Below are positions 13,698 through 50,636 of a stretch of 56,473 nt of DNA, in pieces. The stretch is from positions 2,528-59,000 of the forward strand of contig CAZWAE010000002.1 of NCBI GenBank assembly GCA_964631805.1, written 5' to 3'. Origin of the DNA: an uncultured Desulfobacteraceae bacterium. Lineage in GTDB: Bacteria > Desulfobacterota > Desulfobacteria > Desulfobacterales > CAZWAE01. Within the stretch, counting starts at the first letter, position 1; every line of letters starts with the position of its first letter. A program made the translations under genes and the position numbers. The notes under the pieces were generated by a model. It made no database searches. It was not told the DNA's origin and saw nothing but the letters and a program-made list of their open reading frames with translations.

Positions 13698-14882
13698 TCA
13701 AGACCGGTAATCCGCATTTATTCTGACATATTCAACTGAAAAGTCACAGGTAAGGGAACTTGCCGTGCCATGGCCCAGGTTCAGGTCCAGAGTGACCGAA
13801 AACGCATCCTTTTTCAGCACCTGGCTGGCTTTGGCTTCTGCTTTATCCCCACACCCCATCCCCTCTTTAACCATCTGAACGTCATCAAAAAAAAGATCGA
13901 TACGGTCGGGTTCTACGGGAACACCGGATCTGCCGGCGGCCCCGAGAATCCTTCCCCAGTTGGCATCTTCACCGAAAAATGCGGTTTTGACCAGATTGGA
14001 ATTGGCCACTGTATCAGCGACATCCCGGGCTTCCACGTCGGAAGGCGCCCCCTTTACCAGAATATCCACCACCTTTGTCACGCCCTCGCCATCCTTTACC
14101 AACTGCCGGGCCAGGTCCATCAGCATCTCATCAAGAATTTCCTGAAAGATTTTCCTTCCCGGTCCATCATTGATTGAGATACCCGAAACGCCATTGGCGA
14201 GGAGCAAAACCGTGTCGTTAGTGCTCATATCACCGTCAATGGTGATCCGGTTGAAGGAGCGCTCAACGGCGGAAGAGAGAATTGGGTTCAATGTCCCGGC
14301 ATCGGACTGGACATCGGTACAGACGAAGCACAGCATGGTCGCCATATCCGGTCGAATCATACCGGCACCTTTGGCGGTGGCGAGCAAGGTAAATGTTTTT
14401 CCGTGGATCGATCCTTTTCGTACCACCAGTTTGGGGACGCGATCGGTGGTCATGATAGCACGGGCAAAAGCTGGAAATCCCTCCGGTTCAATAGCTCCGG
14501 CAAGCTCCGGTATGGCCTGCTCAATTTTTCTCATGGGCATGGTTTGACCGATCACACCGGTTGAAGATACCAGAACATGCGTGTCCGGTATGCCGAGAGC
14601 AGTGGCCGTCTTTTGGGTCATTACCGCCGCATCCTTCTCCCCTTGCGCACCCGTACAACAATTGGCATTGCCGCTGTTCACGATGACCGCCTGGGCAACT
14701 CCGGAACCTATTCTCTGCCGGTCCAGAACAACGGGAGCAGCCTGTACCCTGTTCCGGGTAAACAGGCCGGCCACATTCGCCGGCTTCTCGGAATAGATCA
14801 GGCCGAGGTCTTTCTCTCTTTTTTTCTTGATACCGGCAGAGAGTCCACCGGCCATGAATCCCGGGCAGGTTATGTTCTCCAT
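13698..14882 (-). CDS. argJ: Bifunctional glutamate N-acetyltransferase / amino-acid acetyltransferase
   Basis: 394 aa with ArgJ signatures: AAGLSAGIKK, NSGNANCCTG, autoprocessing region ATMLCFVCTD and the YVRINADYRS C-terminus. Confidence 0.9.
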   Translation of the reverse strand: MENITCPGFMAGGLSAGIKKKREKDLGLIYSEKPANVAGLFTRNRVQAAPVVLDRQRIGSGVAQAVIVNSGNANCCTGAQGEKDAAVMTQKTATALGIPDTHVLVSSTGVIGQTMPMRKIEQAIPELAGAIEPEGFPAFARAIMTTDRVPKLVVRKGSIHGKTFTLLATAKGAGMIRPDMATMLCFVCTDVQSDAGTLNPILSSAVERSFNRITIDGDMSTNDTVLLLANGVSGISINDGPGRKIFQEILDEMLMDLARQLVKDGEGVTKVVDILVKGAPSDVEARDVADTVANSNLVKTAFFGEDANWGRILGAAGRSGVPVEPDRIDLFFDDVQMVKEGMGCGDKAEAKASQVLKKDAFSVTLDLNLGHGTASSLTCDFSVEYVRINADYRS

Positions 14883-14973
14883 CCCTCATCTCCTTCTTTG
14901 CTCATATCACGTTTCAATTCCATTTGACAGAACCCGTAAATATTGTCAATGTACATCCTCAGAAGAGGGTAAT

Positions 14974-15168
14974 ATGGGGACAATAAAAGAGATTACGGCC
15001 GCCCATTGTGTTGAATGCGGGGAACAACTGGTGATCAAACGCTCCTGACGCAAAGTAGTGTTGAGCTGCAGGTCATGCGGCCGCGAATACCGATTTGAAC
15101 AATTCACAAACGTGATGGACGATGCCATGGAAGAAAAGGTGGCCGACATGAGGTGCGATCGGTTTTAA
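14974..15168 (+). CDS. Candidate small dual-CXXC selenoprotein (in-frame UGA at 15046-15048)
   Basis: MGTIKEITAAHCVECGEQLVIKRS-[TGA]-RKVVLSCRSCGREYRFEQFTNVMDDAMEEKVADMRCDRF. GAGGG RBS. A hairpin with a GGUCA loop lies after the TGA. The TAA stop overlaps the ATG of the next gene (TAATG). The track shows only the 24-aa stub. Confidence 0.45.
15065..15081 (+). other. SECIS-like hairpin
   Basis: GCUGCA-GGUCA-UGCGGC: 6 bp stem starting 20 nt from the U of UGA. The core UGCAGGUC resembles the E. coli fdhF SECIS apical region as I remember it. Confidence 0.45.
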
Positions 15169-16085
15169 TGATACTCAACAGCCTTTTTCCGGTATTCGGT
15201 CTGATTGTCCTCGGCGGGATTTTAAAACGATTCAACCTCACCAACGACAGTTTCCTGAAAACCTCTGACCGCCTCGTTTATTTCATTTTTTTTCCGGCCA
15301 TGCTGTTCTGGAAAATTGGCGGAAGGCCCTCGGATGTGAGCATCCCATGGGATTTCTGTACGGCGGTGCTCATCGCTGTTGCCATTATTTATCTGTTGAG
15401 CTGTCTTTGCATAAAAGTATTTCGCATCACCGATTTTGAAGCCGGCAGTTTTTCCCAGAGCTGCTACCGGTTCAACACCTACATCGGGATTGCCATCATC
15501 TTCAGTTCACTGGGGGAATCCGGCGTCGTTCAATTCGGCATATTGATCGGATTTATCATTCCCGTCATCAATGTCATGGCGGTGTCGACCCTCATCTGGT
15601 TCTCCGGTGAACGGGTGACATTTCCTGAGCGATTCCGCATTACCTTGACCGCACTCGTCTCAAACCCTCTCATCATCGCTTGTATCGCCGGAATTTTGTA
15701 TGCCAGGTTTGTCCAGACATTCCCGGAATTTATCGACAATACCCTTCACCTCATATCCATGGCCACACTGCCCCTTGCCCTGCTGTCCATCGGCGGCGCC
15801 TTGACGTTCAAAAGCCTTCGGCAGTGTTTGAAAGCATCTCTGGTGTCATCGGTTCTCAAATTGGCCGTGCTGCCGGTTTTGGGATGGGCGATACTTACGG
15901 CTTTTGGCATTGGAGGAATTCACATGCAAGTGGGCATGGTTTTTTTCAGTCTCCCCGCTTCCACAGCCATCTATGTGCTCTCTTCTCAACTGAAAAGCGA
16001 TACGAACCTGGCATCTGCCTCCATCGTTCTTTCCACGGTTATCTCTTTCTTTTCACTATCTGTTGCGATGCTGCTCTTTTTTTAG
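15168..16085 (+). CDS. AEC (auxin efflux carrier) family transporter
   Basis: About 10 TM segments; N-terminus MILNSLFPVFGLIVLGGILKRF is typical of the family. Alternative GTG start at 15153. Confidence 0.8.
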   Translation: MILNSLFPVFGLIVLGGILKRFNLTNDSFLKTSDRLVYFIFFPAMLFWKIGGRPSDVSIPWDFCTAVLIAVAIIYLLSCLCIKVFRITDFEAGSFSQSCYRFNTYIGIAIIFSSLGESGVVQFGILIGFIIPVINVMAVSTLIWFSGERVTFPERFRITLTALVSNPLIIACIAGILYARFVQTFPEFIDNTLHLISMATLPLALLSIGGALTFKSLRQCLKASLVSSVLKLAVLPVLGWAILTAFGIGGIHMQVGMVFFSLPASTAIYVLSSQLKSDTNLASASIVLSTVISFFSLSVAMLLFF

Positions 16086-27700: not shown

Positions 27701-29247
27701 TTACCTGCTCCGAGGACTCCCAGCAGCGAATGAAGGAACTCATCAAGGAGCACAACCTGAACCGGGTGGTGGTGGCGGCCTGTTCGCCCAAGACCCACGA
27801 GGGGATCTTCATGGACACCCTTGAGGCCACCGGGTTGAACAAATACCTGTTCGAAATGGCCAACATCCGGAACCAGAACTCCTGGGTCCACGCGGATGAC
27901 CCCGAAACCGCTACGAAAAAGGCGAAAGACCTTGTCCGTATGGCGATAGCCCGTTCCCTGACCCTCAACCCACTTCAGGAAAAAGAGATTCCGGTCAACC
28001 AGCGGGGCCTTGTCATCGGGGGCGGCGTGGCCGGTATGAATGCGGCACTGGGTCTTGCGGAACAGGGGTTTGAAACGGTCATCGTGGAAAAAGAGGAAAG
28101 CCTTGGCGGCAATGCCAACCGCCTGAAATTCACCATAGAGGGTTCCGATGTACAAGCCTACCTGAAAGAGCTGGTGGAAAAGGTCTCGGCCCATCCGGGT
28201 ATCCAGGTCCTGACCCAGTCGCTCATCGTCGGGTTCTCGGGATTCAAGGGCAACTTTACCACGGAGGTGCTGGTGGGCCCGGGCATGTATGAAAGAAAGA
28301 TCGACCATGGGGTGGTCATTCTCGCCACCGGGGCCAACGAGTACCAGCCGAAGGAATACCTCTACGGCGAAAGTGACGCTGTTGTAACCCAGATCGAACT
28401 GACCGACATCATCGAGGATAAGGGTGCCGATCACCTCAACCAGGTGGTCATGATCCAGTGTATCGGTTCCCGGAACGAGGAAAATGTCAACTGTTCACGG
28501 ATCTGCTGCCAGAATGCGATTAAAAACGCCATCCACATCAAGAAGAAAAATGCTGATACGGATGTGTTTATCCTCTACCGGGATATCCGCACCTATGGCC
28601 TCCTTGAAGAGTACTACAAGGAAGCCAGGGATCTGGGGGTGATGTTCTTCCGCTACGATCCGGATAATCCGCCGGTTTCTGAAAAGGCCGGAGAAAAGGT
28701 GGCGGTCACCTTCGAGGACCATGTCTTAAAGCGCCGCTTGAAGGTCAATGCGGACCTGCTGGTGCTCAGCGCCGGACTGGTGGCCGAAGACACCGAAGAG
28801 CTTGCATCCATCGTCAAACTGGCACGGAACGCTGAAGGGCACTTCATGGAAGCACATGTTAAATTGCGGCCGGTCGATATGGCCACCGAAGGCATTTTTG
28901 TCTGCGGAACCGCCCACAGCCCGAAATTGATCAACGAGTCCATTGCCCAGGCCTATGCGGCGGCCTCGCGGGCGTCCACCTTCCTGGCCCAGGACCGCCT
29001 GACACTCTCTGCAGTAACGGCAACAGTGAAGTCCGAAATGTGTGCATCCTGCCTTGTCTGTGTCAGATCCTGTCCTTACAGTGTGCCGCGTATCAATGCC
29101 GATGGGGTCAGTGAAATTGATGAAGCGTTGTGCCAGGGCTGCGGTGTGTGCACCGCCGAATGCCCGGCCAAAGCCATAGAGCTGAACTGGTATGAAGATG
29201 ATCAACTGGAAAGCAAGATCGAATCTTTGCTTGAGGGGGTACTATGA
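24766..29247 (+). CDS. hdrL: Large HdrA-like flavoprotein (HdrL type: HdrA module with inserted GltD/NfnB-like NAD(P)H module, second HdrA-like module, C-terminal 2x[4Fe-4S]); in-frame UGA at 24991-24993 read as Sec
   Basis: Track ORFs 24766-24993 and 25030-29247 are in the same frame (offset 264). The junction reads [11 protein letters not shown]-[TGA][12 protein letters not shown], which as I recall matches the HdrA ..FPTNDCSxC.. motif. Also [31 protein letters not shown] and [14 protein letters not shown]. Confidence 0.8.
25009..25026 (+). other. SECIS-like hairpin
   Basis: CUGGUC-GAGGUC-GGCCGG: 6 bp stem (or 7 bp with an AGGU loop), starting 19 nt from the U of UGA 24991. Confidence 0.5.
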
Positions 29248-29678
29248 GTAAGGCGTTCAATCCGATTATACTGTCCTTTTGCTGCAACTACTGAGGGTAC
29301 ACCGCCGCGGACCTGGCAGGTTCGATGCGTCTGGAATACCCGGCCAGCATTAAAATCATCCGTGTCCCCTGTACGGGAAAGGTGGATGTCCAGCACATCC
29401 TCCGTTCCTTCGAGAAAGGGGCGGATGGGGTTTATGTGGTGGGTTGTATGGAAGGGGATTGCCACTTTAACAGCGGCAATTTAAGAGCAAAGAAACGTGT
29501 GGAGCAGGCCGCCAAGATCCTTGATACCGTCGGAATCGGGGGGGATCGGGTCAGGATGTACAACCTTTCCTCCAGCGAGGGACCGCTATTTGCACAGTAT
29601 GCAAGGGAGATGGAAGAATTAATACAAAATTTGGGACCGAGCCCTCTGAAGCTGGCTAAAAAAAAAAGGGCGGCGTAG
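29244..29678 (+). CDS. mvhD: Methyl-viologen-reducing hydrogenase delta subunit-like protein (MvhD); in-frame UGA at 29292-29294 read as Sec
   Basis: The ATG overlaps the hdrL stop (ATGA). Reads [16 protein letters not shown]-[TGA]-GYTAADLAGSMRLEYP.., where I recall MvhD proteins having CCNWCSY. The rest (IIRVPCTGKVD..YVVGCMEGDCHF) is canonical. The track starts only at 29325, same frame. Confidence 0.8.
29308..29324 (+). other. SECIS-like hairpin
   Basis: CGGACC-UGGCA-GGUUCG: 6 bp stem including one G-U pair, starting 17 nt from the U of UGA 29292. Confidence 0.4.
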
Positions 29679-29760: not shown

Positions 29761-30429
29761 ATGATTGTTGCCGACAAAAAGCCAATCGAGGAAATAATTG
29801 AGGAAATCAAAGAGTATGAGAATATCCTGATCCTGGGTTGCAACGAGTGTGTAACGGTATGTGAGGCAGGGGGAAAAAAGGAAGTGGGCATTCTGGCTTC
29901 GGCGTTGAGAATGTATTTTCTCAACCAGGGCCAGGAGGTCAAAATTGATGAACGCACCTTGGAACGCCAGTGCGACCACGAGTATCTCGAGGAGATCCGG
30001 GATGTCATCGACAAGTATGATGCCGTTGTCTCGCTTGCTTGCGGCGTCGGGGTTCAGTTCACCGCAGAAAAATACATGGAAAAACCCATTCTGCCAGGGG
30101 TCAACACCACTTTCCTGGGGGCAACGGAGGAACGCGGTCTCTGGACGGAAAGGTGCCAGGCCTGCGGGCAATGCATCCTTGCCAGGACCGGCGGCATCTG
30201 TCCGGTATCCCGCTGTGCCAAACGTGTTCTCAACGGTCCTTGTGGGGGGTCTACCGGTGGCAAATGTGAGATCACCAAGGGGGTGGACTGCGCCTGGCAG
30301 ATCATCATAGACCGACTCGATGCGCTGGACAAAATGGACACGTATGAGGAACTCAGCCCCATAAAAGACTGGTCCACTGACAGGGCCGGGGGACCCAGAA
30401 CCGTAACAAGGGAGGATGTGCAGCAATGA
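29761..30429 (+). CDS. metV: MetV-type protein (methylene-THF reductase C-terminal zinc-ribbon-like domain)
   Basis: CQACGQCILARTGGICPVSRCAKRVLNGPCGGSTGGKCE. It overlaps the metF start by 4 nt (ATGA). Confidence 0.75.
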   Translation: MIVADKKPIEEIIEEIKEYENILILGCNECVTVCEAGGKKEVGILASALRMYFLNQGQEVKIDERTLERQCDHEYLEEIRDVIDKYDAVVSLACGVGVQFTAEKYMEKPILPGVNTTFLGATEERGLWTERCQACGQCILARTGGICPVSRCAKRVLNGPCGGSTGGKCEITKGVDCAWQIIIDRLDALDKMDTYEELSPIKDWSTDRAGGPRTVTREDVQQ

Positions 30430-31358
30430 AAGTAAAGACACCGAGCAAACTGGAAAAGGTTCTTGCCGCAGGACATCTTGCCGTTACGTCCGAGTGCGGC
30501 CCGCCGAGGGGCAGCGACCCCGAAGCGGTCATCAAGAAAGCGGAACTGATCAAAGACCATGTGGATGCGGTTAATATCACCGACAACCAGACGTCGGTGA
30601 CCCGCATGTGCAGCCTGGCGGCCTGCATCCGGCTCAAACTCATGGGTCTGGAGCCGGTCCTCCAGATGGTGACCCGGGACCGGAACCGCATCGCCCTGCA
30701 GAGCGATATTCTGGGCGCCGCCTCCTTTGACATCCGCAATATCCTCTGCCTCTCCGGAGACCACCAGAGTTTCGGGGATTGCGCGCAGGGACAGAACGTT
30801 CATGATCTCGATTCCATGCAGCTGCTTCAGACGGTCCGGCACATGCGGGATGAAGGGAAGTTTCTGGGAGGCGATGAGATCAAACGGCCGCCCGAGATGT
30901 TTGTCGGCGCCGCCGCCAACCCCTTTGCGGATCCTTTTGAGATCAGGGTGCCCCGGCTGGCCAAAAAGATAAAAGCCGGTGCCGAATTTATCCAGACCCA
31001 ATGCATCTACAATCTGGACAAGTTCGAGGAGTGGATGCGCCGGGTGAAGGAAAGAGGGTTGCATGAAAAAGTCCATATCCTCGCCGGTATGACACCCATG
31101 AAATCAGCAGGGATGGCCAAGTATATGAAAAACCGGGTGCCGGGAATGGATGTCCCGGACGAAGTGGTAAAACGGTTGTCCGACACCCCGAAGGAGAAGC
31201 AGGCCGAAGAGGGGGTCAATATTTGCGTCGAAGCGATCCAGCGGCTGAAAGAGGTCGAAGGGGTCGCCGGGTTTCACGTGATGGCCATCGAATGGGAGGA
31301 AATGGTCCCGGAGATCGTCGAAAGAACCGGTCTGTACCCCAGACCCGAGATGGACTGA
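30426..31358 (+). CDS. metF: Methylenetetrahydrofolate reductase (MetF paralogue 2)
   Basis: 310 aa. [41 protein letters not shown] and FIQTQ. Confidence 0.85.
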   Translation: MKVKTPSKLEKVLAAGHLAVTSECGPPRGSDPEAVIKKAELIKDHVDAVNITDNQTSVTRMCSLAACIRLKLMGLEPVLQMVTRDRNRIALQSDILGAASFDIRNILCLSGDHQSFGDCAQGQNVHDLDSMQLLQTVRHMRDEGKFLGGDEIKRPPEMFVGAAANPFADPFEIRVPRLAKKIKAGAEFIQTQCIYNLDKFEEWMRRVKERGLHEKVHILAGMTPMKSAGMAKYMKNRVPGMDVPDEVVKRLSDTPKEKQAEEGVNICVEAIQRLKEVEGVAGFHVMAIEWEEMVPEIVERTGLYPRPEMD

Positions 31359-31811: not shown

Positions 31812-33131
31812 ATGTCATCAGAACCAATAGTACTGAAACCCAAAACAGAAAGTACATTCAAAGAGCAGGTGGCGGATCTGCTTCCGGACGGAGGCAACCT
31901 GAACCTGTGCCTGACGTGCGGCCTCTGCTCATCCGGTTGCCCGGCCACCGGTCTTGAAAACATGGACCCGAGGAAATATCTCAGGATGGCTTCCCTGGGG
32001 ATGGATGAAGAGGTTCTCACCTCCAAATGGGCCTGGATGTGTACCATGTGCATGCGATGCATCCATGCCTGCCCCATGAAAATCAATATACCCCAGCTGG
32101 TCTTCAATGTACGGAGCAGATGGCCCAAAGAGGACCAGCCCAAGGGGATCAGGAGTTCCTGCGAGATGGCGGGCAGAAACGACACCTGCAGTGCAATGGG
32201 AGCTTCCGAAGAGGATTTCAAATTTGTGGTGGAAGATGTCCTGGAGGAATATCAGGAATCGCAGCCAGAGTTCAAGGATATGCAGGCACCCATCAACAAA
32301 GAGGGATCGGAGTTCTTTCTCAACCAGAACTCCAGGGAACCGGTCACTGAGCCCGACGAGATGGTGCCGTTGTGGAAAATCCTGCATACTGTCGGTGCGG
32401 ACTGGACCTACGGGTCAAAGGGATGGGCTGCGGAGAACTACTGCCTTTTTGTCGCCGATAATGAAAAGTGGAAAGAAAACGTCAGCATCAAGGCCAAGGC
32501 GGTGGATGACCTCGGCTGCAAGGTCTGGCTCAACACCGAGTGAGGGCACGAATTCTTCTCAGTCCGGGTCGGACTGGATAAATTCAAGATCGAGCATAAG
32601 TTCGAGGTTAAAAGCATCATAGAATACTACGCCAAGTGGATCCGGGAGGGAAAGCTCAAGGTTAATTCGGACTGGAACAAGGATATCAAGGCAACCTTTA
32701 CCGTTCAGGATCCCTGCCAGCTGGTTCGAAAAAGCCTGGGAGACCCCATCGCGGAGGATCTTCGGTATGTGGTGAGATCGGTGGTAGGAGAGGAAAATTT
32801 CATCGACATGACCCCCAACCGTTCCAACAACTATTGCTGCGGCGGCGGGGGCGGTTTTCTTCAGTCCGGATTTCCGGAAGCCAGAAGATACTACGGCAGG
32901 ATGAAATTTGAACAGATCGACCGCACCGGCGCCGATTACTGCATCACCCCGTGTCACAACTGCCACGCACAGATCCATGACATAGGAGAGCATTATGAGG
33001 GGAAATACCACTCCCTTCATATCTGGACCTTGATCTGTCTCTCCATGGGGATTCTCGGTCCAAACGAACGGGAATACCTGGGGCCTGAACTTAAAGAGGT
33101 TCTTCCTTTTCACCCCGAATCGGCCATGTAG
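31812..33131 (+). CDS. HdrC/HdrB-fusion (HdrD-like) Fe-S oxidoreductase with CCG domains; in-frame UGA at 32541-32543 read as Sec
   Basis: Track ORFs 31812-32543 and 32769-33131 are in the same frame (offset 957) with no other stop between them. HdrC part: CLTCGLCSSGCP and CTMCMRCIHACP. Junction: VWLNTE-[TGA]-GHEFF. As I recall, HdrD-type proteins have ECGH at this position. Second CCG domain: DPCQL..YCCGGGGG..TPCHNCH. Confidence 0.75.
32560..32576 (+). other. SECIS-like hairpin
   Basis: CAGUCC(G)-GGU-(C)GGACUG: perfect 6-7 bp stem starting 20 nt from the U of UGA 32541. Confidence 0.55.
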
Positions 33132-42324: not shown

Positions 42325-42705
42325 TTGGTGCCTGATACAAAATCCATACTGCTTGCCATTTCGGATGAGGATCTAAAGGCGCAAGTGTACGAAGTGCTGG
42401 ATGGCATCGAGGCCTGTACATTGACATGTGTGGGAGACAGCGGGGACGTACTCCTCAAAATATTGGATAAAGACATCGACCTGGCCATCATAGATGAAAA
42501 TATCGCCGGCATGGCCGGTTCCAAACTCATCGAAATTATAAAGAAGAGCAGGCCCAGAATTCCCCTGATTACAATATCCTCCGGCAATTCAAAAGAAGAA
42601 TTGGCCCGGGTACTGGAACAGGGGGTTTTCTACTTTATCATCACTCCCATCAACGGTGAAGAATTGAGACAGGCCGTTGAGAGTGCTTTGAAAACCAATC
42701 CATGA
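42325..42705 (+). CDS. Receiver-domain-like protein, atypical (conserved Lys replaced)
   Basis: ILLAISDED, DLAIIDENIAGMAG and LITISS are present, but the KP position reads FIITPING. TTG/GTG start; ATGA overlap with actA. Confidence 0.7.
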   Translation: MVPDTKSILLAISDEDLKAQVYEVLDGIEACTLTCVGDSGDVLLKILDKDIDLAIIDENIAGMAGSKLIEIIKKSRPRIPLITISSGNSKEELARVLEQGVFYFIITPINGEELRQAVESALKTNP

Positions 42706-43427
42706 ATCGTCAAACGGGAGCAAACGCTTTGGATGGAAGACGTTTAAAAAGATCAGAAAAACGGTCAGGGCTGGCGAGGCTTTTTTTTGTGCCGATCCTG
42801 TTATCGGCATTTTTATACTTAATCGTCGGGTTGGCAGGGGGGGCCGACGCGCCCGCCGAATCCGAACCGCCGGCCGAATTCCGCCAACCCATTGAATTCA
42901 GCCACAAGACGCACATCGAAAAGGGCGGGATGTCGTGCGAATTCTGTCATGTCTACGCCCGTCGTTCGATCAACTCCGGCGCTCCCGTCATGGCAACCTG
43001 TTTTGGATGTCACAGCGTGATTGCCGGATCGGATGATGATCCGAAGAAAGCTGCCGAAAAGCAGGATGCGATCAAAAAATTGTTGGAATTCAAACCCAAG
43101 GGAACGCCGGTTCAATGGAAAAAGATCCATGACGTCCCCGATTTTGTCCATTTTTCTCACAAACGCCACATTCAAGTCGGCTTTGACTGTACGGAATGCC
43201 ACGGAGAGATCAACCAGCACGATGTGTTATCCCCGCAAACCATGATCACTGACCTTAGCATGGGGTGGTGTATGAAATGTCATCGGGAAGGCAGGCAGAC
43301 GGTTGGGGGGGAAATTGCAGGTCCGGTTCGGGAAACAAGGGGCGGAACAATTATGGCGCAGGCCGCAAAACAACAACCCGACGGATTTTTGGTGGGATCA
43401 AAAGACTGCTACACATGTCACAAATAA
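42702..43427 (+). CDS. actA: Alternative Complex III pentahaem cytochrome c subunit
   Basis: N-terminal TM anchor and five CxxCH motifs: CEFCH, CFGCH, CTECH, CMKCH and CYTCH. Confidence 0.85.
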   Translation: MNRQTGANALDGRRLKRSEKRSGLARLFFVPILLSAFLYLIVGLAGGADAPAESEPPAEFRQPIEFSHKTHIEKGGMSCEFCHVYARRSINSGAPVMATCFGCHSVIAGSDDDPKKAAEKQDAIKKLLEFKPKGTPVQWKKIHDVPDFVHFSHKRHIQVGFDCTECHGEINQHDVLSPQTMITDLSMGWCMKCHREGRQTVGGEIAGPVRETRGGTIMAQAAKQQPDGFLVGSKDCYTCHK

Positions 43428-43439
43428 TAAGGAACAGGG

Positions 43440-46400
43440 ATGAATAGAAACTTAAGCCGCAGAAATTTCCTGAAGATGTCAGCACTGGGCGGCGCAACGA
43501 TGGTTGCCGCCGGGTGCTCCGATCCCATCGAGAAACTGGTTCCATTGCAGTTGCCACCCTACGACTATGTGTCCGGTGTTTCCATCCATTTTGCCACGAC
43601 CTGCCGGGAATGCTCAGCCGATTGCGGAATCATCGTAAGAACTCGCGAAGGAAGAGCGATCAAAGCCGAAGGAAATCCGCGACACCCCATAAGTGACGGA
43701 CGCATCTGCCTGCAGGGGCAGTCCATTCTCCAGGGACTCTACAGCCCGGCAAGAGCGGCCGGCCCGATGGTTGTGACCGACAAGGAGGCGCGCGGTGTCA
43801 GTTGGAAAGAAGGAAATCAACAACTGGTGGAGAAGCTGAATGTCGCAAAAAATGAAAGGAGCGGCATTCTCTATATCGGCCCGCCCAGAAGCGGCAGCTA
43901 TCCGGAGATGCTGAAAAAATGGCTTGACGGTATGGGAGGCGGAACGTCTCTTGAACTTGATATGACACCGGCAAACAGTTTAAAGCACGCCAACCGCATT
44001 GTATTTGGTAAGGAGGAGATCCCCCACTTTGCACTTGAAAAAGCCGACCTTCTCATCAATTTCGGGGCCGATTTTCTGGAAAGCTGGCTGAACCCGGTTC
44101 AGATGACCAAAAGCTATACCAGTATGCACCGTTACCAAGATGGGAAAAAAGGCCGGTATGTTCATATTGCGCCCCACCTGTCGCTGACCGGCACCAATGC
44201 CGATGAATGGATCTCCTGCCCGGTGGGCCATGAAACTTCCATCGCCCTGGCGCTCAGCCGCATCCTGCTCAAACAGGCAGAACATCTCTCCATCGACGAG
44301 AAACAGCGCCTCACGGAACTCCTCAGCGATTTCCCGGAAGACAAAATTGCAAAAGAGAGCGGTCTTGAATCCCGTGCACTTTCGAAACTGGCCGATGCAT
44401 TTGGGCAAAAAGGACGGAGCCTGGCGATCGCCGGAGGAAACTGCAGTGCCGGACCTGAAGCCACCCGGTTGCAGGTCGCTGTTAATATCCTCAATTATGT
44501 GGCCGGTAATATTGGGAAGACCGTTGTTTTCGGCGCGGATTACCGCATGGGCGGCAGCAGCATGACCGATCTGGATGCGGCGATCAAAGGAATGAAGGAG
44601 GGACGCTATCAACTGGTGATGATCGAAAACGTCAACCCGGTTTTTACTCTTCCCGAAAATTCAGGTTTCAAAGAGGCGTTGAAGACGGTCCCGTTTGTGG
44701 TCTCATTGTCCACGGAAAACGATGAAACCTCCGAACTCGCCGATCTGCACCTGCCGACGGCTCATTTCTTAGAGAGCTGGGGGGACGCCCTCCCGAGAAA
44801 TGGTGTTTTTGCTCTGCAGCAGCCGGTCATGGCAACCGTGCCGGGCTTCAATGCCAGGGAGGTCGGCGGATTGATGCTCGAATTGGCCCGGCTGGTTGAA
44901 ATCGAGGGTGTTGAAGCCCCTAATTACCGGGATTATATCAAAGCTTCCTGGAAAATCCTGCATCAAAAATTAGACACCTCTCTGCCGTTTGATAAATTCT
45001 GGAAAAAATCCCTGCAAAATGGCGGACATTATGAAGACTTCAAACCGTCAACCGCCGTTCTCAGCCGTGACATCTTTGCGCTAAAGTTCCCCCCTCCTCC
45101 GGAAAAAACCATCGGTCTCAGCCTGCTGGCCGTCAACTCCAATCTGCACAATGCCAATGCCAGGGGAGGCAACAGGACATGGCTCATGGAAATACCCCAT
45201 CCGGTAACCCAGGTGGTGTGGGACTCCTGGCTTGAACTCCACCCCGATACCGCCGTCAAACTGGGGATAAGACACGGCGATCTTGTCGAAATCACAACCT
45301 CTTACGGAAAAGCGGAGGCGGCCGCATGGGTGTTTTACGGTATCGATAAAAATACCGTGGCCATGCCGGCAGGATTGGGTCGAAAGGTGCCGTTTCCCAA
45401 TTACAAATCCAGCCACGGCCAAAGCAAATTGATACCGGTCCTGGAATCGGAATTGAAAGTGGAAGAAAAAATGGTGGGAATCAACGTCATGGACCTTCTG
45501 TCCTGGCGCAGAGACAGCCTTTCGGGCGATTTTGTTTTTGCAGGGGAAAGGGTGAGAATCAAACCTACCGGTAAAAAGGCTTATCTCGTAACCATGGACG
45601 GGCAGTACCGTAAAGATATTGAGACCCCAAAAGCTGAAGACAAGACGGGGTTTGGAGATCGCAGTCAGAAAGGGAGAGGGTTTGTCCAGGTAATGTCTGT
45701 CGGCGGGAGCGAACAGCCGTATAAGGAACACGCCCCGGCGCACCATGCCCGGAAGCGTTTTTATACACTGAATCGTGATGACAAGAGGAGTTTCTATGAC
45801 CCCATGGCGGAAAACGTCCAAAACGCGGTAAAAAAAGCGGGTAAAAAAACACCGGTTTATCACGATCCCTACAAATGGGAAATGATCATCGATCTGGATC
45901 GCTGCACCGGCTGTTCCGCCTGTGTGGCGGCTTGTTATGCCGAAAACAACATCCCGTTGGTTGGAAAGGACCGCTCGAATGTGGGGCGGGAGATGAGCTG
46001 GCTTCGGCTCGAACGATATTTTGAAAAAAACAAACAGACCGGGCGTCTGGAGACCTATTATTCACCCCAGATGTGCCAGCAATGCGACAACGCCGGCTGC
46101 GAGCCGGTCTGCCCCGTGTTCGCCACCTACCAGACCCCCGATGGCCTGAACGCCATGATCTATAATCGTTGTGTGGGAACCCGATATTGCTCAAACAATT
46201 GCGTTTTTAAGATGAGACGTTTCAACTGGAGGGATTACCAGTTTCCAAAGCCGCTGCAGATGCAGCTCAATCCGGCCGTGTCGGTCCGCTCCAGGGGCGT
46301 GATGGAAAAATGTACCTTCTGTCAACATCGGATCCGGGAGATCAAAGACCGGGCCAAAGACCAAGGGCGCGAAGTAAGGGATGGTGAAATCCAGACAGCC

Positions 46401-46577
46401 TGCCAACAGGCCTGTCCAGCCGATGCAATCACTTTTGGGAATATCAAGGATCAAAACAGCAATGTAAAACAGATGAAGGGAAAAAGCCGGCGCAAATACA
46501 CCCAACTGCCCGAGTTGAATTTCAAGCCTGCGATCACCTATCTGAAAAAAGTGAACCTCAATAACCGAAAAGTCTAG
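43440..46577 (+). CDS. actB: Alternative Complex III subunit B (molybdopterin-oxidoreductase-like domain plus 4Fe-4S ferredoxin domain)
   Basis: Tat signal SRRNFLKMSALGGATMVAAG and a 1045-aa fusion. The C-terminal part carries CTGCSACVAAC, CQQCDNAGCEPVCP, CVGTRYCSNNC, CTFCQHR and CQQACP. Confidence 0.9.
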   Translation: MNRNLSRRNFLKMSALGGATMVAAGCSDPIEKLVPLQLPPYDYVSGVSIHFATTCRECSADCGIIVRTREGRAIKAEGNPRHPISDGRICLQGQSILQGLYSPARAAGPMVVTDKEARGVSWKEGNQQLVEKLNVAKNERSGILYIGPPRSGSYPEMLKKWLDGMGGGTSLELDMTPANSLKHANRIVFGKEEIPHFALEKADLLINFGADFLESWLNPVQMTKSYTSMHRYQDGKKGRYVHIAPHLSLTGTNADEWISCPVGHETSIALALSRILLKQAEHLSIDEKQRLTELLSDFPEDKIAKESGLESRALSKLADAFGQKGRSLAIAGGNCSAGPEATRLQVAVNILNYVAGNIGKTVVFGADYRMGGSSMTDLDAAIKGMKEGRYQLVMIENVNPVFTLPENSGFKEALKTVPFVVSLSTENDETSELADLHLPTAHFLESWGDALPRNGVFALQQPVMATVPGFNAREVGGLMLELARLVEIEGVEAPNYRDYIKASWKILHQKLDTSLPFDKFWKKSLQNGGHYEDFKPSTAVLSRDIFALKFPPPPEKTIGLSLLAVNSNLHNANARGGNRTWLMEIPHPVTQVVWDSWLELHPDTAVKLGIRHGDLVEITTSYGKAEAAAWVFYGIDKNTVAMPAGLGRKVPFPNYKSSHGQSKLIPVLESELKVEEKMVGINVMDLLSWRRDSLSGDFVFAGERVRIKPTGKKAYLVTMDGQYRKDIETPKAEDKTGFGDRSQKGRGFVQVMSVGGSEQPYKEHAPAHHARKRFYTLNRDDKRSFYDPMAENVQNAVKKAGKKTPVYHDPYKWEMIIDLDRCTGCSACVAACYAENNIPLVGKDRSNVGREMSWLRLERYFEKNKQTGRLETYYSPQMCQQCDNAGCEPVCPVFATYQTPDGLNAMIYNRCVGTRYCSNNCVFKMRRFNWRDYQFPKPLQMQLNPAVSVRSRGVMEKCTFCQHRIREIKDRAKDQGREVRDGEIQTACQQACPADAITFGNIKDQNSNVKQMKGKSRRKYTQLPELNFKPAITYLKKVNLNNRKV

Positions 46578-46585
46578 GAGGCGAC

Positions 46586-47905
46586 TTGAACCAGCTCACG
46601 TATGCAAACATCAATGACAACGTCGTCAGCTCCATGGAGCCGCCCGGGAAATCCTGGATGGTGAGTATGGTCCTGTTTGTCGGAGCCCTCAGTATGGGCG
46701 CCTTCGCCTGGGCCGTACAGCTCAGGCACGGCCTGGAATGGAGCGGTGTGAACCATCCCATCGCCTGGGGGGTTTATATCACCAATTTCGTTTTCTGGAT
46801 CGGAATCGGTCATGCAGGCACACTGATCTCAGCGGTGCTTTATCTGGTAAGAGCGCCCTTCCGTAATTCCATATATCGGGCGTCCGAAGCCATGACGGTT
46901 TTTGCGGTGATGACCGCCGGTTTGTTTCCCATCATCCATCTGGGCCGCACCTGGTTTTTTTACTGGATGCTGCCCTACCCCAACCAGCGCGAGCTGTGGA
47001 TAAATTTTAAATCCCCCCTGCTCTGGGATGTTTTCGCCATCTCGACCTATGTTTCCGTCTCCATGGCTTTTTTTGTACTGGGACTGATTCCCGATTTGGC
47101 GGCCGTGCGGGATGAATCCAAGGGTGTGAAACGCCTGCTTTACGGCATTCCGGCTTTCCTTTTCAGGGGAACCAATCACCAGTGGCTTCACTACATGCGG
47201 GGGTATCTGCTCTTTGCCGCCATCGCGACCCCGCTGGTTTTCTCCGTGCACTCCATCGTATCCTGGGATTTCGCCATGTCCAGTCTGCCAGGCTGGCATT
47301 CAACCATCTTTGCCCCCTATTTTGTGGCCGGGGCCATCTTTTCAGGCTGCGGGATGGTGTTGACGATAATGATTCCATTGCGTGTGGCCTTTCCCGGTTT
47401 TAAAGAGATTATCAAGGTTAAGGATCTGGAAGGCATGGCCAAGATGATCATCTTCACCAGTTTGATTGTCACCTATGCTTACGCCGTCGAATTTTTCATC
47501 GCCTACTACAGCGGTGCGAAATATGAAAGAGCGCTCTTCTGGTTTCGCCCCTTCGGAGAGATGAACCCCTATTTCTGGCTGATGGTGGCCTGCAACTGCA
47601 TTGTACCGCTGACGCTTTTTTTTAAAAAAATCCGAACCAATATCCCCGCCCTGTTCGTTATCTCGCTACTGGTAAACGTCGGCATGTGGCTGGAAAGATT
47701 CGTCATTGTCGGCACCTCCCTGGCCCATGGATATGCTCCGTTTTCCTGGGGGAGCTACCAGTTCGAATGGGTGGAGATCTGGCTCACCGTCGCGAGTTTC
47801 GGCTGGTTTTTCATGTGGTTTTTTATCTTTGTGAAAATCATGCCCTCCATCGCTATTGCTGAAATGAAAGAGAAACTGACACCCCCATTCAGGAAGAAAA
47901 AATGA
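46586..47905 (+). CDS. actC: Alternative Complex III NrfD/PsrC-like quinol-interacting membrane subunit
   Basis: 439-aa polytopic membrane protein. TTG start with a TAGGAGG RBS; position and size fit ActC. Confidence 0.85.
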   Translation: MNQLTYANINDNVVSSMEPPGKSWMVSMVLFVGALSMGAFAWAVQLRHGLEWSGVNHPIAWGVYITNFVFWIGIGHAGTLISAVLYLVRAPFRNSIYRASEAMTVFAVMTAGLFPIIHLGRTWFFYWMLPYPNQRELWINFKSPLLWDVFAISTYVSVSMAFFVLGLIPDLAAVRDESKGVKRLLYGIPAFLFRGTNHQWLHYMRGYLLFAAIATPLVFSVHSIVSWDFAMSSLPGWHSTIFAPYFVAGAIFSGCGMVLTIMIPLRVAFPGFKEIIKVKDLEGMAKMIIFTSLIVTYAYAVEFFIAYYSGAKYERALFWFRPFGEMNPYFWLMVACNCIVPLTLFFKKIRTNIPALFVISLLVNVGMWLERFVIVGTSLAHGYAPFSWGSYQFEWVEIWLTVASFGWFFMWFFIFVKIMPSIAIAEMKEKLTPPFRKKK

Positions 47906-48432
47906 GGAAGAAATTTTTAGGCGCCTGGGCAACCTTCGAGTATCTGGATGACACCTGTGACGCCATTAAAGAATTGAAAACCGAAGGATTCGATCAGATC
48001 ACCACCCACACGCCGTGTCCAAGACACGAAATCGATCATGCCCTGGGGAATCCGCAGAGCAGGGTGCCTTTCGCCACGCTTGCAGGCGCCTTTCTCGGGT
48101 TTGGTACGGCCGTTCTGATGATGACAAAAATGGCCCTCGACTGGATTCTTCCGGTTTCAGGGAAACCCGTTGTGTCCATACCCATAATGGGGCCCATCGC
48201 CTTTGAACTATCCGTTCTTGTGTCCATCTATTTTACCATCGGAGGTATGTTTCTGTTGATCCTGTGGGACACATGGAAGCATCCGGTTCCCAAAAGCCGC
48301 AGATACAAAGAGTACGACAGATTTATGCGCGACCGCTTTGGTATCGTGGTGGCCGGCGAAAACGACGACCTTGAAAAGCTGGAAAAAATTTTAAAAAAGC
48401 ACCAGGCGGAGGAGGTCAACCTTGAGAGTTAG
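47902..48432 (+). CDS. actD: Alternative Complex III subunit D (DUF3341-like)
   Basis: 176 aa with a soluble N-terminal domain (LGAWATFEYLDDTCDAIKELK) and two TM segments. ATGA overlap with actC. Confidence 0.75.
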   Translation: MRKKFLGAWATFEYLDDTCDAIKELKTEGFDQITTHTPCPRHEIDHALGNPQSRVPFATLAGAFLGFGTAVLMMTKMALDWILPVSGKPVVSIPIMGPIAFELSVLVSIYFTIGGMFLLILWDTWKHPVPKSRRYKEYDRFMRDRFGIVVAGENDDLEKLEKILKKHQAEEVNLES

Positions 48433-48979
48433 AACCCTTTTGTTTGCCGGTATTTTATTGTCCGTCCTATTGGTTTCGGCCAATCTCATGGCCAGATCGT
48501 CCGTGCTCACCGTGATGACGGACATGTTTAACCAGGTCAGCATCAAACCGCAGGAAAAGGGGAGTATGAATGCGTTTGTCGTCGGTGCCGTCACCTTTGA
48601 CGGCAGCGAGATCGAAGACCCGAACGATCGGTTCAGCCGGATCATAAAGGATGTTGTCTCCAAGACCGCCACAATCAACCCCAATAAACCGGATGCGCCG
48701 TCTCTTACCGACGGGAAACGGAAATTCAACACTTTTTGCGCGGTGTGTCACGGATCCAGCCGGGAGATCAATGCAGAGGGTTTCGCCAAGACCAAGGTCA
48801 ATGAACTGGGTATGATTGCGCCGGCCGTTATCACGCTGACGCCCCATTTCAGTGACGGCTATATTTATCATAAGGCCAAGTACGGGGGACCGGTGATGCC
48901 TGCGCTTGGATATGCCGTGGCCGCAGACGAGAGATGGAATATTGTCAACTACATTCGTGAACTGGAGAAGCAGGAATGA
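48422..48979 (+). CDS. actE: Alternative Complex III monohaem cytochrome c subunit
   Basis: Signal/anchor sequence, a single CAVCHG motif and a later Met-containing GGPVMPALG. Confidence 0.8.
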   Translation: MRVRTLLFAGILLSVLLVSANLMARSSVLTVMTDMFNQVSIKPQEKGSMNAFVVGAVTFDGSEIEDPNDRFSRIIKDVVSKTATINPNKPDAPSLTDGKRKFNTFCAVCHGSSREINAEGFAKTKVNELGMIAPAVITLTPHFSDGYIYHKAKYGGPVMPALGYAVAADERWNIVNYIRELEKQE

Positions 48980-50280
48980 GCAGGGACAGCGAAATAAAAA
49001 TCCTTCTGGATGAAACCCGTTTTACCCTCAGCGGCGGGCTGCAAAAGCTTCTGCTGTGTTTTGTCGGAATCGGCGTTATCGGCTTTGGTGCCGGACTCAT
49101 CGGCAGCAGCTCATATCTGGCCTGGCAGGCGCTGCTTGTCAACACCATGTTTTTCGGCGGCATCGCCCTGGGCGGTCTGGGTTTTTCCCTGATATTCACC
49201 ATCACCAATGCAAAATGGGGAAGGCCGATCAAGCGTCTCACAGAGGCGTTTGGGGCATTTGTGCCCATCGGTGCGGCTCTCCTCTGCCTGCTTTTTTTCG
49301 GCGCCGACCATTTCTTTGAATGGATGGATCATGACAAAGTGATGCATGCCAAGGCAGGGTGGTTGAATTTTCCATTTTTTATCATCCGGAATGTGGTTTT
49401 CCTGGGACTGTTTGTTGCCGGCGGCAGCTACTATCTGAAAACCGTGATCAGACCGGATATCGGATTGGCCGGGAAGGTCAGCGGCTTCGGTAATCCTTTT
49501 GCCGACCGGTTCGTTGGCAATTACGGTGCCCAAAAGGAGGAGGAGGCCGTAGCGGAAAAAAGGGCGAAAACGCTTGCACCGCTGTTGGCACTGCTTTTTT
49601 TCCTCCTCAGCACTCTTTTGGCATTCGACTGGATGATGTCCATCGATCAGGAGTGGTTCAGCACCATGTTCGGTGTGCAATATGCCATTTCAAACCTGAT
49701 CGGCGCAGCAGCCGTCCTTTTGATCGTTGCCGGAATTGCCCGGAACCATTTTGGTTTGGCCGAGTATATCACCATCGACCGCTATCACGATCTGGCCAAG
49801 CTGACGTTTGCCTTCTGCGCCCTGTGGACCTATCTGGTTTTTTCTCAGGTTCTGGTCATCTGGTACAGCAACATTCCCGAGGAGACCCCTTACCTGATCC
49901 TCAGGATGCAGTCCGTGGAATGGGGCTGGATGTTCTGGTTTATCTTGGTCCTCATGTTTATCATTCCCTTTTTCGGGTTGATGAGCCGGACCGCGTGCAA
50001 TTCCATCTGGTTTTCGAGGCTGGTTGCCGTGGATGTCCTGGTCGGGACCTGGCTGGAAAAATATTTCCTGATTGTACCTTCCATCCAGGAGAACAATGCA
50101 AGTGCGGGTTTAATTGATGCAAGCGGCGGGCTTCCGGGTTTTTCCCCGAACTTTTATGATCTATCGATTACCCTTGGCGTATCGGGTGTTTTTTTGTTGA
50201 GCTATTTCTGGTTTCTGCAACGGGTGCCGGCGGTCCCGATTTCGGATCCTCTTTTTTTCAGAAAATCGACCGACCATTAG
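48976..50280 (+). CDS. actF: Alternative Complex III second NrfD-like membrane subunit
   Basis: 434-aa polytopic membrane protein; ATGA overlap with actE. Confidence 0.8.
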   Translation: MSRDSEIKILLDETRFTLSGGLQKLLLCFVGIGVIGFGAGLIGSSSYLAWQALLVNTMFFGGIALGGLGFSLIFTITNAKWGRPIKRLTEAFGAFVPIGAALLCLLFFGADHFFEWMDHDKVMHAKAGWLNFPFFIIRNVVFLGLFVAGGSYYLKTVIRPDIGLAGKVSGFGNPFADRFVGNYGAQKEEEAVAEKRAKTLAPLLALLFFLLSTLLAFDWMMSIDQEWFSTMFGVQYAISNLIGAAAVLLIVAGIARNHFGLAEYITIDRYHDLAKLTFAFCALWTYLVFSQVLVIWYSNIPEETPYLILRMQSVEWGWMFWFILVLMFIIPFFGLMSRTACNSIWFSRLVAVDVLVGTWLEKYFLIVPSIQENNASAGLIDASGGLPGFSPNFYDLSITLGVSGVFLLSYFWFLQRVPAVPISDPLFFRKSTDH

Positions 50281-50303
50281 TGTGGAACGGGTAAGGAGGC
50301 AAT

Positions 50304-50486
50304 ATGGATCTATTAAACATCATTTTCCCCCAGGGGTTTCAACTATTCACTTTGATCGCCTGGACGGTCTGCGGCCTGCTTTTCGGACTTCAGTCGTTTT
50401 TCGGGATAGCGTTGACATTTTCTCTGTTGGGTCACCTGGTCCAGTTTGTTTTTAAAAAAACGTCGCTGCACGTTGATCGTACATAG
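50304..50486 (+). CDS. Small hydrophobic protein (two predicted TM segments), possibly an ActG-like accessory subunit
   Basis: 60 aa. FTLIAWTVCGLLFGL and FFGIALTFSLLGHLVQFVF. AAGGAGG RBS, 23 nt after actF. Confidence 0.4.
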   Translation: MDLLNIIFPQGFQLFTLIAWTVCGLLFGLQSFFGIALTFSLLGHLVQFVFKKTSLHVDRT

Positions 50487-50564
50487 ATTCGGGATTTTCG
50501 GGTTCAAAAATGGCCGAAATTCATGTGGGATGTTTTTAGGCCGAGCTCATAGTGGTTGCCTGAT

Positions 50565-50580
50565 GGTTTAAAGTTAAACC
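50565..50580. promoter_or_regulatory. Palindrome upstream of nosZ, possible operator
   Basis: GGTTTAA-ag-TTAAACC lies 57-72 nt upstream of the nosZ ATG. Confidence 0.25.
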
Positions 50581-50636
50581 AATGGATAACGGGGGCATCT
50601 TCGTTAATTTTATTACATAGGGAAAAGGAGGATCAG

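Follow-up and report, generated by a model that had tools for sequence, protein, structure and literature searches.

The DNA analysed here (the window) is a 56,473-nucleotide (nt) stretch of contig CAZWAE010000002.1 from an uncultured Desulfobacteraceae bacterium. We found that positions 14974-15168 of its forward strand are a real, unannotated gene of the dual CXXC motif small selenoprotein family (OS_HP3, NF041197), as judged from its profile match and its homologues, and that the internal UGA codon of this gene almost certainly encodes selenocysteine (Sec), a reading based on comparison of sequences. The translation is MGTIKEITAAHCVECGEQLVIKRS-TGA-RKVVLSCRSCGREYRFEQFTNVMDDAMEEKVADMRCDRF-TAA, with the in-frame TGA at 15046-15048, the terminal TAA at 15166-15168 and two CxxCG motifs. 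No gene is called in this interval on the source metagenome contigs. A preliminary description of the window, made from the letters alone, had proposed a 64-codon dual-CXXC open reading frame (ORF) with an in-frame UGA, of which ORF lists show only a 24-residue stub; the translation agrees with the former, and ORF callers do stop at 15048. The family has been predicted since 2007 and has a curated NCBI model, and this copy is a routine addition rather than a discovery.

With Sec written as cysteine (Cys), the 64-residue product scored 67.2 bits against a cut-off of 40 with the NCBIfam profile NF041197.2, named "CxxC_Se_CxxC, dual CXXC motif small (seleno)protein", and residues 12-64 aligned to all 53 profile positions (1-53). 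With X at the Sec position the score was 59.6 bits against the same cut-off. The preliminary description had tentatively offered this family name, and the name was right. Members carry two CxxC pairs in a protein of about 55-80 residues, as does this product (C12-x2-C15 and C32-x2-C35 in 64 residues, spaced as in the homologues), and they have Sec or Cys in an R-x-U column, here R23-S24-U25. A UGA lying between the CxxC pairs, which had been called unusual, is in fact the defining trait of the family: Table 1 of a 2026 review equates OS_HP3 with NF041197 and gives its motif as RxU (PMC13188914). OS_HP3 was predicted as a hypothetical protein in 2007 by Zhang and Gladyshev in two symbionts (δ1 and δ4) of Olavius algarvensis, in a paper that figured its selenocysteine insertion sequence (SECIS) element and reported no Cys homologues (PMC1976440). 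The window copy shares with the family its size, the two CxxC motifs, the R-x-U between them, a SECIS element directly downstream and an origin in sulfate-reducing Deltaproteobacteria (Thermodesulfobacteriota). It differs in nothing structural, but over the 53-residue core its identity to any homologue recovered does not exceed 58%; many Cys homologues were seen in the present comparison, in contrast to the 2007 paper.

Cys12 and Cys15 were invariant in a 17-sequence alignment; in a 74-sequence alignment the first was invariant and the second at least 90% conserved, as was the arginine (Arg) at -2 from Sec, which was invariant among the 17. In the C-terminal tail, D, E and the terminal D-R were conserved among homologues. 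We preferred ATG 14974 over upstream in-frame starts because the homologues also have short N-termini ahead of the first Cys. The degenerate DNA pattern CxxCG-(x)6-R-x-TGH-(x)6-CxxCG occurred once in the window, compared with 0.00 occurrences in 100 shuffles. A scan of 14800-15300 for promoters and terminators found neither.

Homologues were gathered by searching species-representative genomes with degenerate DNA patterns of the motif spacing, followed by a translation filter; the totals are lower bounds, and more members exist. At least 52 distinct TGA-containing homologues were recovered, all with the same spacing, mostly from Desulfobacterales and Syntrophobacterales with some from Desulfovibrionales, and these forms (n = 52) were conserved through to ...[CLM]DR[LIF]-stop. 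As to cultivable carriers, Desulfosarcina widdelii is named in PMC12013277, and the Maridesulfovibrio and Humidesulfovibrio records recovered are mostly metagenome-assembled genomes. The same spacing was found in at least 53 Cys-containing genes of the ...DR[ILVM] type, chiefly from Desulfovibrionaceae. All 17 first-round homologues matched NF041197. The preliminary description had suggested looking for homologues that end at the equivalent stop and lack conservation downstream, and there were none: TGA is kept in 52 genomes, and Cys stands in its place in 53 genomes and 85 cluster representatives. The last number comes from an exhaustive profile search of 1.84 billion cluster representatives, which gave 166 matches at E<=1e-3. 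Among the best 150 of these, 85 were full length with Cys at the Sec column, 49 were fragments of 31-46 residues beginning just after that column (for example P0002-P0006), and six had tryptophan (Trp) at it (P0048, P0062, P0086, P0102, P0106 and P0146). The fragments are what would be expected of truncated annotations of Sec forms and look like annotation artefacts. Two of the six Trp forms also read the terminal TGA as Trp (...NRLW and ...CDRFW), and the Trp forms are apparently a gene-caller artefact in which TGA was translated as Trp.

A sister clade with Cys only was found in Desulfobulbales (L222-L339, including L233 from Desulforhopalus singaporensis and L258 from Ca. Electrothrix). It has C-x2-C-x7-R-x-C-x6-C-x2-C spacing and ends in ...Y(T/S)xIIYD rather than ...DR[LIF]. 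Both groups of Cys-only relatives, the Desulfovibrionaceae and the Desulfobulbales forms, resemble the window protein in this spacing and in an acidic helical tail; they differ from it in having Cys for Sec, a degraded hairpin and, mostly, proline (Pro) rather than Arg or lysine after the third Cys, and the Desulfobulbales clade differs also in its C-terminus. The source name of the Cys form P0001, 'ribosomal protein L37E', is probably a generic zinc-ribbon mislabel and was set aside. A word-indexed protein search with the full 64-residue sequence gave no match, and a single-protein locus search of genome contigs yielded nothing beyond L001 and the Trm112-like L002, both of them spurious CxxC matches.

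The stem of the candidate SECIS element begins 16 nt past the A of UGA (19 nt past the U), and pairs GCUGCA (15065-15070) with UGCGGC (15076-15081) around the loop GGUCA (15071-15075). The preliminary description had given this sequence and pairing correctly and had placed the hairpin 20 nt after the UGA, which is not the distance found. The published model of bacterial SECIS elements has an upper stem of 4-16 bp capped by an apical loop 3-9 nt long, a G at one or both of loop positions 1 and 2, most often as G[G/U], 16-37 nt between UGA and loop, and a minimum free energy of -7.5 kcal/mol or lower (PMC13188914, Fig. 2). The window hairpin agrees with all four points, with a 5-nt loop on a 6-bp stem, GG at the start of the loop, 22 nt between codon and loop (15049-15070) and -9.1 kcal/mol for the 21-nt segment; it was the minimum-free-energy fold of both the 21-nt and a 55-nt segment. 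On its own, however, this hairpin is unremarkable and weak, and it is the comparative evidence that carries the SECIS argument.

In the Sec forms, all six pairs were present in 44 of 52 sequences, and RNAalifold independently predicted the same hairpin. Loops in the 52 homologues started with GGU, AGG, GGG, CGG or AGU; in L127 (loop GGGUC) the closing pair of the fixed 6-bp stem was itself mismatched. The mean number of pairs in the fixed hairpin was 5.79 in Sec forms versus 3.81 in Cys forms (Mann-Whitney p=8e-15), and its mean energy was -7.1 versus -0.3 kcal/mol (p=3e-14), a contrast that is phylogenetically non-independent in that the two forms belong to separate clades and differ in the amino acids at the hairpin codons (R/K versus P after the third Cys). 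Since x-Cys-x-x-Cys-Gly codons make up the stem, it shows hardly any variation and classical covariation is weak; a G-C to A-U exchange at the closing pair was seen in two sequences. Synonymous choice was more informative. Arg before the third Cys was encoded by CGN in 33 of 35 cases (CGC in 28), whereas Arg after it was encoded by AGG in 25 of 28 (Fisher p=4e-12). TGC was the Cys codon in 97/104 instances in the second motif versus 75/104 in the first (p=8e-5), and third-position variability was 0.26 inside the hairpin versus 0.66 in its flanks. These codon patterns indicate that the hairpin constrains synonymous sites.

Like the bSECISearch consensus and its Escherichia coli fdhF archetype, the window element has a small loop whose two leading nucleotides are G (GGUC...), a 6-bp upper stem and a loop 22 nt past the UGA. 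The minimal fdhF element likewise reads UGCA-GGUC-UGCA. Unlike the consensus, the window stem is short, has no obvious bulged U or conserved lower stem, lies wholly within the conserved zinc-knuckle coding motif and hardly varies, and no Rfam family matched anywhere in the window at gathering thresholds. In three Sec forms with ...C-R-R-U... (L016, L028 and L206), the canonical 6-bp stem was weakened to 3-5 bp. When folded singly, L016 and L028 formed a shifted alternative hairpin with a GGUG-type loop, such as CUGUGGCCCUUA-GGUG-UAAGGGCUGCGG in L016, which may be a variant SECIS element within the family.

Three further in-frame TGA codons in the window stand at recognised selenoprotein positions, in genes for an HdrL-type protein, an MvhD/VhuD homologue and an HdrCB-type iron-sulfur protein (Table 1), and they suggest that the organism decodes Sec. 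A 7-bp hairpin whose AGGU loop lies at +25 stands behind the hdrL UGA and another of 7 bp behind that of mvhD; the hdrCB-like gene, which ORF lists break into two pieces, has behind its UGA a hairpin of 8 bp whose GGU loop lies at +26. The preliminary description had likened the position and geometry of the small gene's hairpin to these three, a likeness that is borne out: their stems have 7-8 bp, and their loops, which contain G, begin at 23-26 nt counted from the U of UGA. The mvhD ATG overlaps the hdrL stop (ATGA).

Table 1. Positions in the window of the selenoprotein gene, its parts, its neighbours and the other UGA-containing genes
Feature	Position	Strand	Basis
Selenoprotein ORF, ATG to TAA, 64 codons, candidate Sec at codon 25	14974..15168	+	Translation, NF041197 match, homologues
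Shine-Dalgarno-like AAGAGGG, 4-nt spacer to ATG	14963..14969	+	Read from sequence
First zinc knuckle C-V-E-C-G (Cys12, Cys15)	15007..15021	+	Alignment conservation
R-S-U motif (R23-S24-U25), TGA 15046-15048 as candidate Sec codon	15040..15048	+	Conservation, literature motif RxU
Candidate SECIS hairpin, 6-bp stem GCUGCA/UGCGGC, apical loop GGUCA, in codons S-C-R-S-C-G	15065..15081	+	Folding, comparison
Second zinc knuckle C-R-S-C-G (Cys32, Cys35), overlaps hairpin	15067..15081	+	Both Cys invariant in the 17- and 74-sequence alignments
C-terminal tail, predicted short strand and two acidic helices, ending ...MDDAMEEKVADMRCDRF	15082..15165	+	Conservation, codon-position variability, AlphaFold2 model of homologue
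TAATG stop/start overlap with next gene	15166..15170	+	Read from sequence
AEC/Mem_trans (auxin-efflux-carrier) transporter gene, 305 residues, downstream	15168..16085	+	TIGR00946 E=7e-17, PF03547 on source contig
argJ, upstream and divergent	13698-14882	-	
HdrL-type gene, HdrA N-terminus fused to GltD-like NAD(P)H module; TGA 24991-24993 at classical HdrA site	24766-29247	+	
MvhD/VhuD homologue; TGA 29292-29294 in SFCCNY-U-GY	29244-29678	+	
HmcF/TmcB/DsrK-like (HdrCB-type) iron-sulfur protein; TGA 32541-32543 in ...WLNTE-U-GHEFF...	31812-33131	+	

The fold was approached through an AlphaFold2 model of the Cys homologue P0001, which is 33% identical to the window protein and was modelled with the 74-sequence alignment. 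The model had a mean pLDDT (predicted local distance difference test) of 84.8, with strands at 18-24, 31-36, 41-44 and 51-53 and helices at 54-60 and 63-71. Its CxxC motifs come after strands 1 and 3, which is the strand order of zinc ribbons, and the turn that joins strands 2 and 3 contains the Sec-equivalent Cys38. By this model, the selenol of the window protein would probably be exposed at the β-hairpin turn rather than serving as one of the four metal ligands. The strongest Foldseek matches in the PDB, none of them significant, came from primase, the ATCase regulatory chain, an RNA polymerase III subunit and ZifS, in each case from a zinc-ribbon module. Zinc ribbons of the generic four-Cys kind (RPB9/TFIIS, RNA polymerase III RPC10, the ATCase regulatory chain, ZifS, the HypA zinc site and NF047912) have two CxxC knuckles around a β-hairpin, as the window protein is predicted to have, but they gave no significant sequence or structure match and none has a conserved fifth Cys or Sec at the hairpin turn. 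A Pfam scan of the 64-residue product gave zinc-ribbon matches below threshold only. The product matched NF047912 (ECs_2282 family putative zinc-binding protein, 60 positions) over nearly its full length with 25 bits against a cut-off of 37, and four of the 17 first-round homologues matched this model as well; the similarity may reflect a remote relationship or a generic zinc-ribbon likeness. The cross-matches to NF047912 and HypA, being below their cut-offs, were treated as generic similarity.

Taken together, the data are very probably best explained by an OS_HP3-family selenoprotein gene whose UGA is decoded as Sec by means of the hairpin, whose product would be a zinc ribbon and which probably forms an operon with the AEC gene. 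Under the established bacterial pathway of Sec insertion, a ribosome that initiates at ATG 14974 would arrive at UGA 15046, where the 6-bp stem with its GGUCA loop, 16 nt downstream, would recruit SelB carrying Sec-tRNASec. Sec would then be inserted in place of termination, and 39 further codons would be translated up to the TAA at 15166. The codons of the second CxxCG knuckle make up the hairpin, so RNA signal and protein motif would each restrict the other. As suggested by the Cys-homologue model, the product would consist of a four-Cys zinc ribbon and, after it, two short acidic helices, with Sec in the invariant R-x-U at the β-hairpin turn, probably outside the four metal ligands. Its most likely role would be that of a selenol, redox-active or binding a metal(loid), carried by a small scaffold that zinc stabilises. 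A Cys near the C-terminus (C-D-R-F in the window) occurs in only 26 of 52 Sec forms, which makes an obligatory Sec-Cys redox pair unlikely. The architecture could also be taken to define a new functional class, a zinc ribbon with a single exposed selenol, sometimes paired with the near-C-terminal Cys (C-D-R-L), that serves as a redox or metal(loid) partner, with recoding that makes AEC translation selenium-dependent in this lineage as well; we regard this extension as unlikely.

Several observations weigh against this explanation or parts of it. For decoding, ARAGORN found no tRNA gene, hence no tRNA-Sec, in the 56-kb window, and no SelA, SelB or SelD domain was found in its long ORFs (30 compared with Pfam and four more with NCBIfam). 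For the hairpin, 11 of 200 shuffles of the 21-mer folded as well, the 55-nt segment had a z-score of -0.63 and a different 71-nt segment had a competing fold. Covariation was slight, with a score of 0.173 compared with 0.148 in shuffles and reached by 14 of 500 of them, and the clade structure described above limits the contrast between Sec and Cys forms. The fold is that predicted for a 33%-identical homologue, and the Foldseek search against the PDB gave nothing significant (best E=0.34). The neighbourhood provides no functional clue outside Desulfobacterales, and the 2026 review classes OS_HP3 as a computationally predicted selenoprotein family (PMC13188914).

A different account of the arrangement with the AEC gene would make the ORF mainly a selenium-sensing leader, in which AEC is translated only when the UGA is read as Sec and the peptide itself is of little importance. 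The TAA of the small gene shares its last A with ATG 15168 of the AEC gene, whose 305-residue call fits that start, and TGATG or short gaps to the AEC gene were seen in several homologous loci, as a leader would have it. In a neighbourhood comparison of 55 loci, the window's own contig included, however, an AEC homologue was downstream in only eight, and other loci carried truA or unrelated genes. The gene often lies between divergent argJ and truA, with the AEC homologue between gene and truA in those eight loci; truA adjoins it in 19 of the 55, most of them labelled Desulfobacterales or a genus therein, and neighbours elsewhere look like unrelated housekeeping genes, as judged by reading cluster representatives. 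Moreover, the protein is conserved along its whole length and Cys forms free of recoding are abundant, so that selection appears to act on the protein itself. We therefore consider a leader improbable. The translational coupling to AEC suggested in the preliminary description holds as to the TAATG overlap, but the arrangement is only partly conserved and, on this comparison, is lineage-specific. The overlap of its stop with the AEC start makes it probable that both genes are co-transcribed and translated as one operon in this organism. Function could not be taken from gene context, which offered only order-level synteny (argJ / gene / AEC / truA).

If the UGA were instead an ordinary stop, the locus would make a 24-residue peptide only, or else two small ORFs, of which the second would begin at GTG 15058, and the open frame downstream would be fortuitous. 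ORF callers do end at 15048, public databases hold many C-terminal fragments of 31-46 residues from internal starts, and the hairpin alone is statistically unexceptional. Against this, 52 species share an unchanging CxxC-x9-TGA-x6-CxxC spacing, and there are Cys forms that are contiguous. The variability per codon position (mean pairwise, 52 Sec forms) was 0.48/0.36/0.66 in the 28 codons after the hairpin, the same pattern as the 0.46/0.35/0.66 in the 13 codons before the TGA; by this measure the region downstream of the TGA evolves as coding sequence, in one frame with the upstream half. The full-profile match of 67 bits also needs full-length translation, and neither half gives it. Termination at 15046-15048 is thus very improbable.

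Equally slim, in our estimate, is the chance that a near-cognate tRNA (Trp, Cys or Arg) reads the UGA, or that UGA is a sense codon, giving a full-length product free of selenium. The six database representatives with Trp at the column would fit such reading, as would the fact that Sec in this family is a computational prediction (PMC13188914). Two of those six run through the terminal TGA as well, however, which points to a gene-caller artefact, and the aligned residue in other lineages is always Cys. In addition, TGA terminates 20 of the 37 long ORFs in the window and is the true stop of 29 of the 52 Sec-form genes, about 39 codons past the Sec TGA, so that under Sec decoding one and the same short mRNA would have UGA codons read in both ways. 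By these counts UGA is not reassigned in the source organism. The hairpin, furthermore, is specific to TGA forms, and the classical hdrL and mvhD selenoprotein sites in the same window use TGA. A decaying pseudogene of a Cys-form gene, for which a single nucleotide change from TGC or TGT to TGA would suffice, has a vanishingly small probability and is effectively refuted by the TGA at the same column in 52 species, the conserved hairpin and the intact downstream frame.

With Sec decoding as the preferred reading, the absence of this gene from the source contig's calls, together with the truncated (31-46 residues) and TGA-as-Trp copies in public sets, implies that selenoproteome counts in these bacteria are too low. 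In the comparative set, the recoding signal appears to be written into a protein motif: the stem of the predicted SECIS element consists of CxxCG codons and fixes which codons are used (CGC ahead of the third Cys, AGG behind it), and the stem appears to decay once Cys replaces Sec. This tight interleaving of the SECIS element with the second zinc-knuckle motif, together with its decay in Cys forms, may be the one new point of the analysis.

Two other regions of the window were noted in passing. Two MTHFR-family genes (23768-24757 and 30426-31358, both forward) flank the hdrL-mvhD cluster, which thereby resembles the MetF/HdrA-MvhD arrangement of sulfate reducers that use the Wood-Ljungdahl pathway. 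Farther downstream, 42702-52571 on the forward strand holds genes for a multihaem cytochrome, a molybdopterin/FeS (iron-sulfur) protein and NrfD-like and ActD proteins, resembling alternative complex III, and these are followed within this region by a gene for a protein with nitrous-oxide-reductase propeller repeats.

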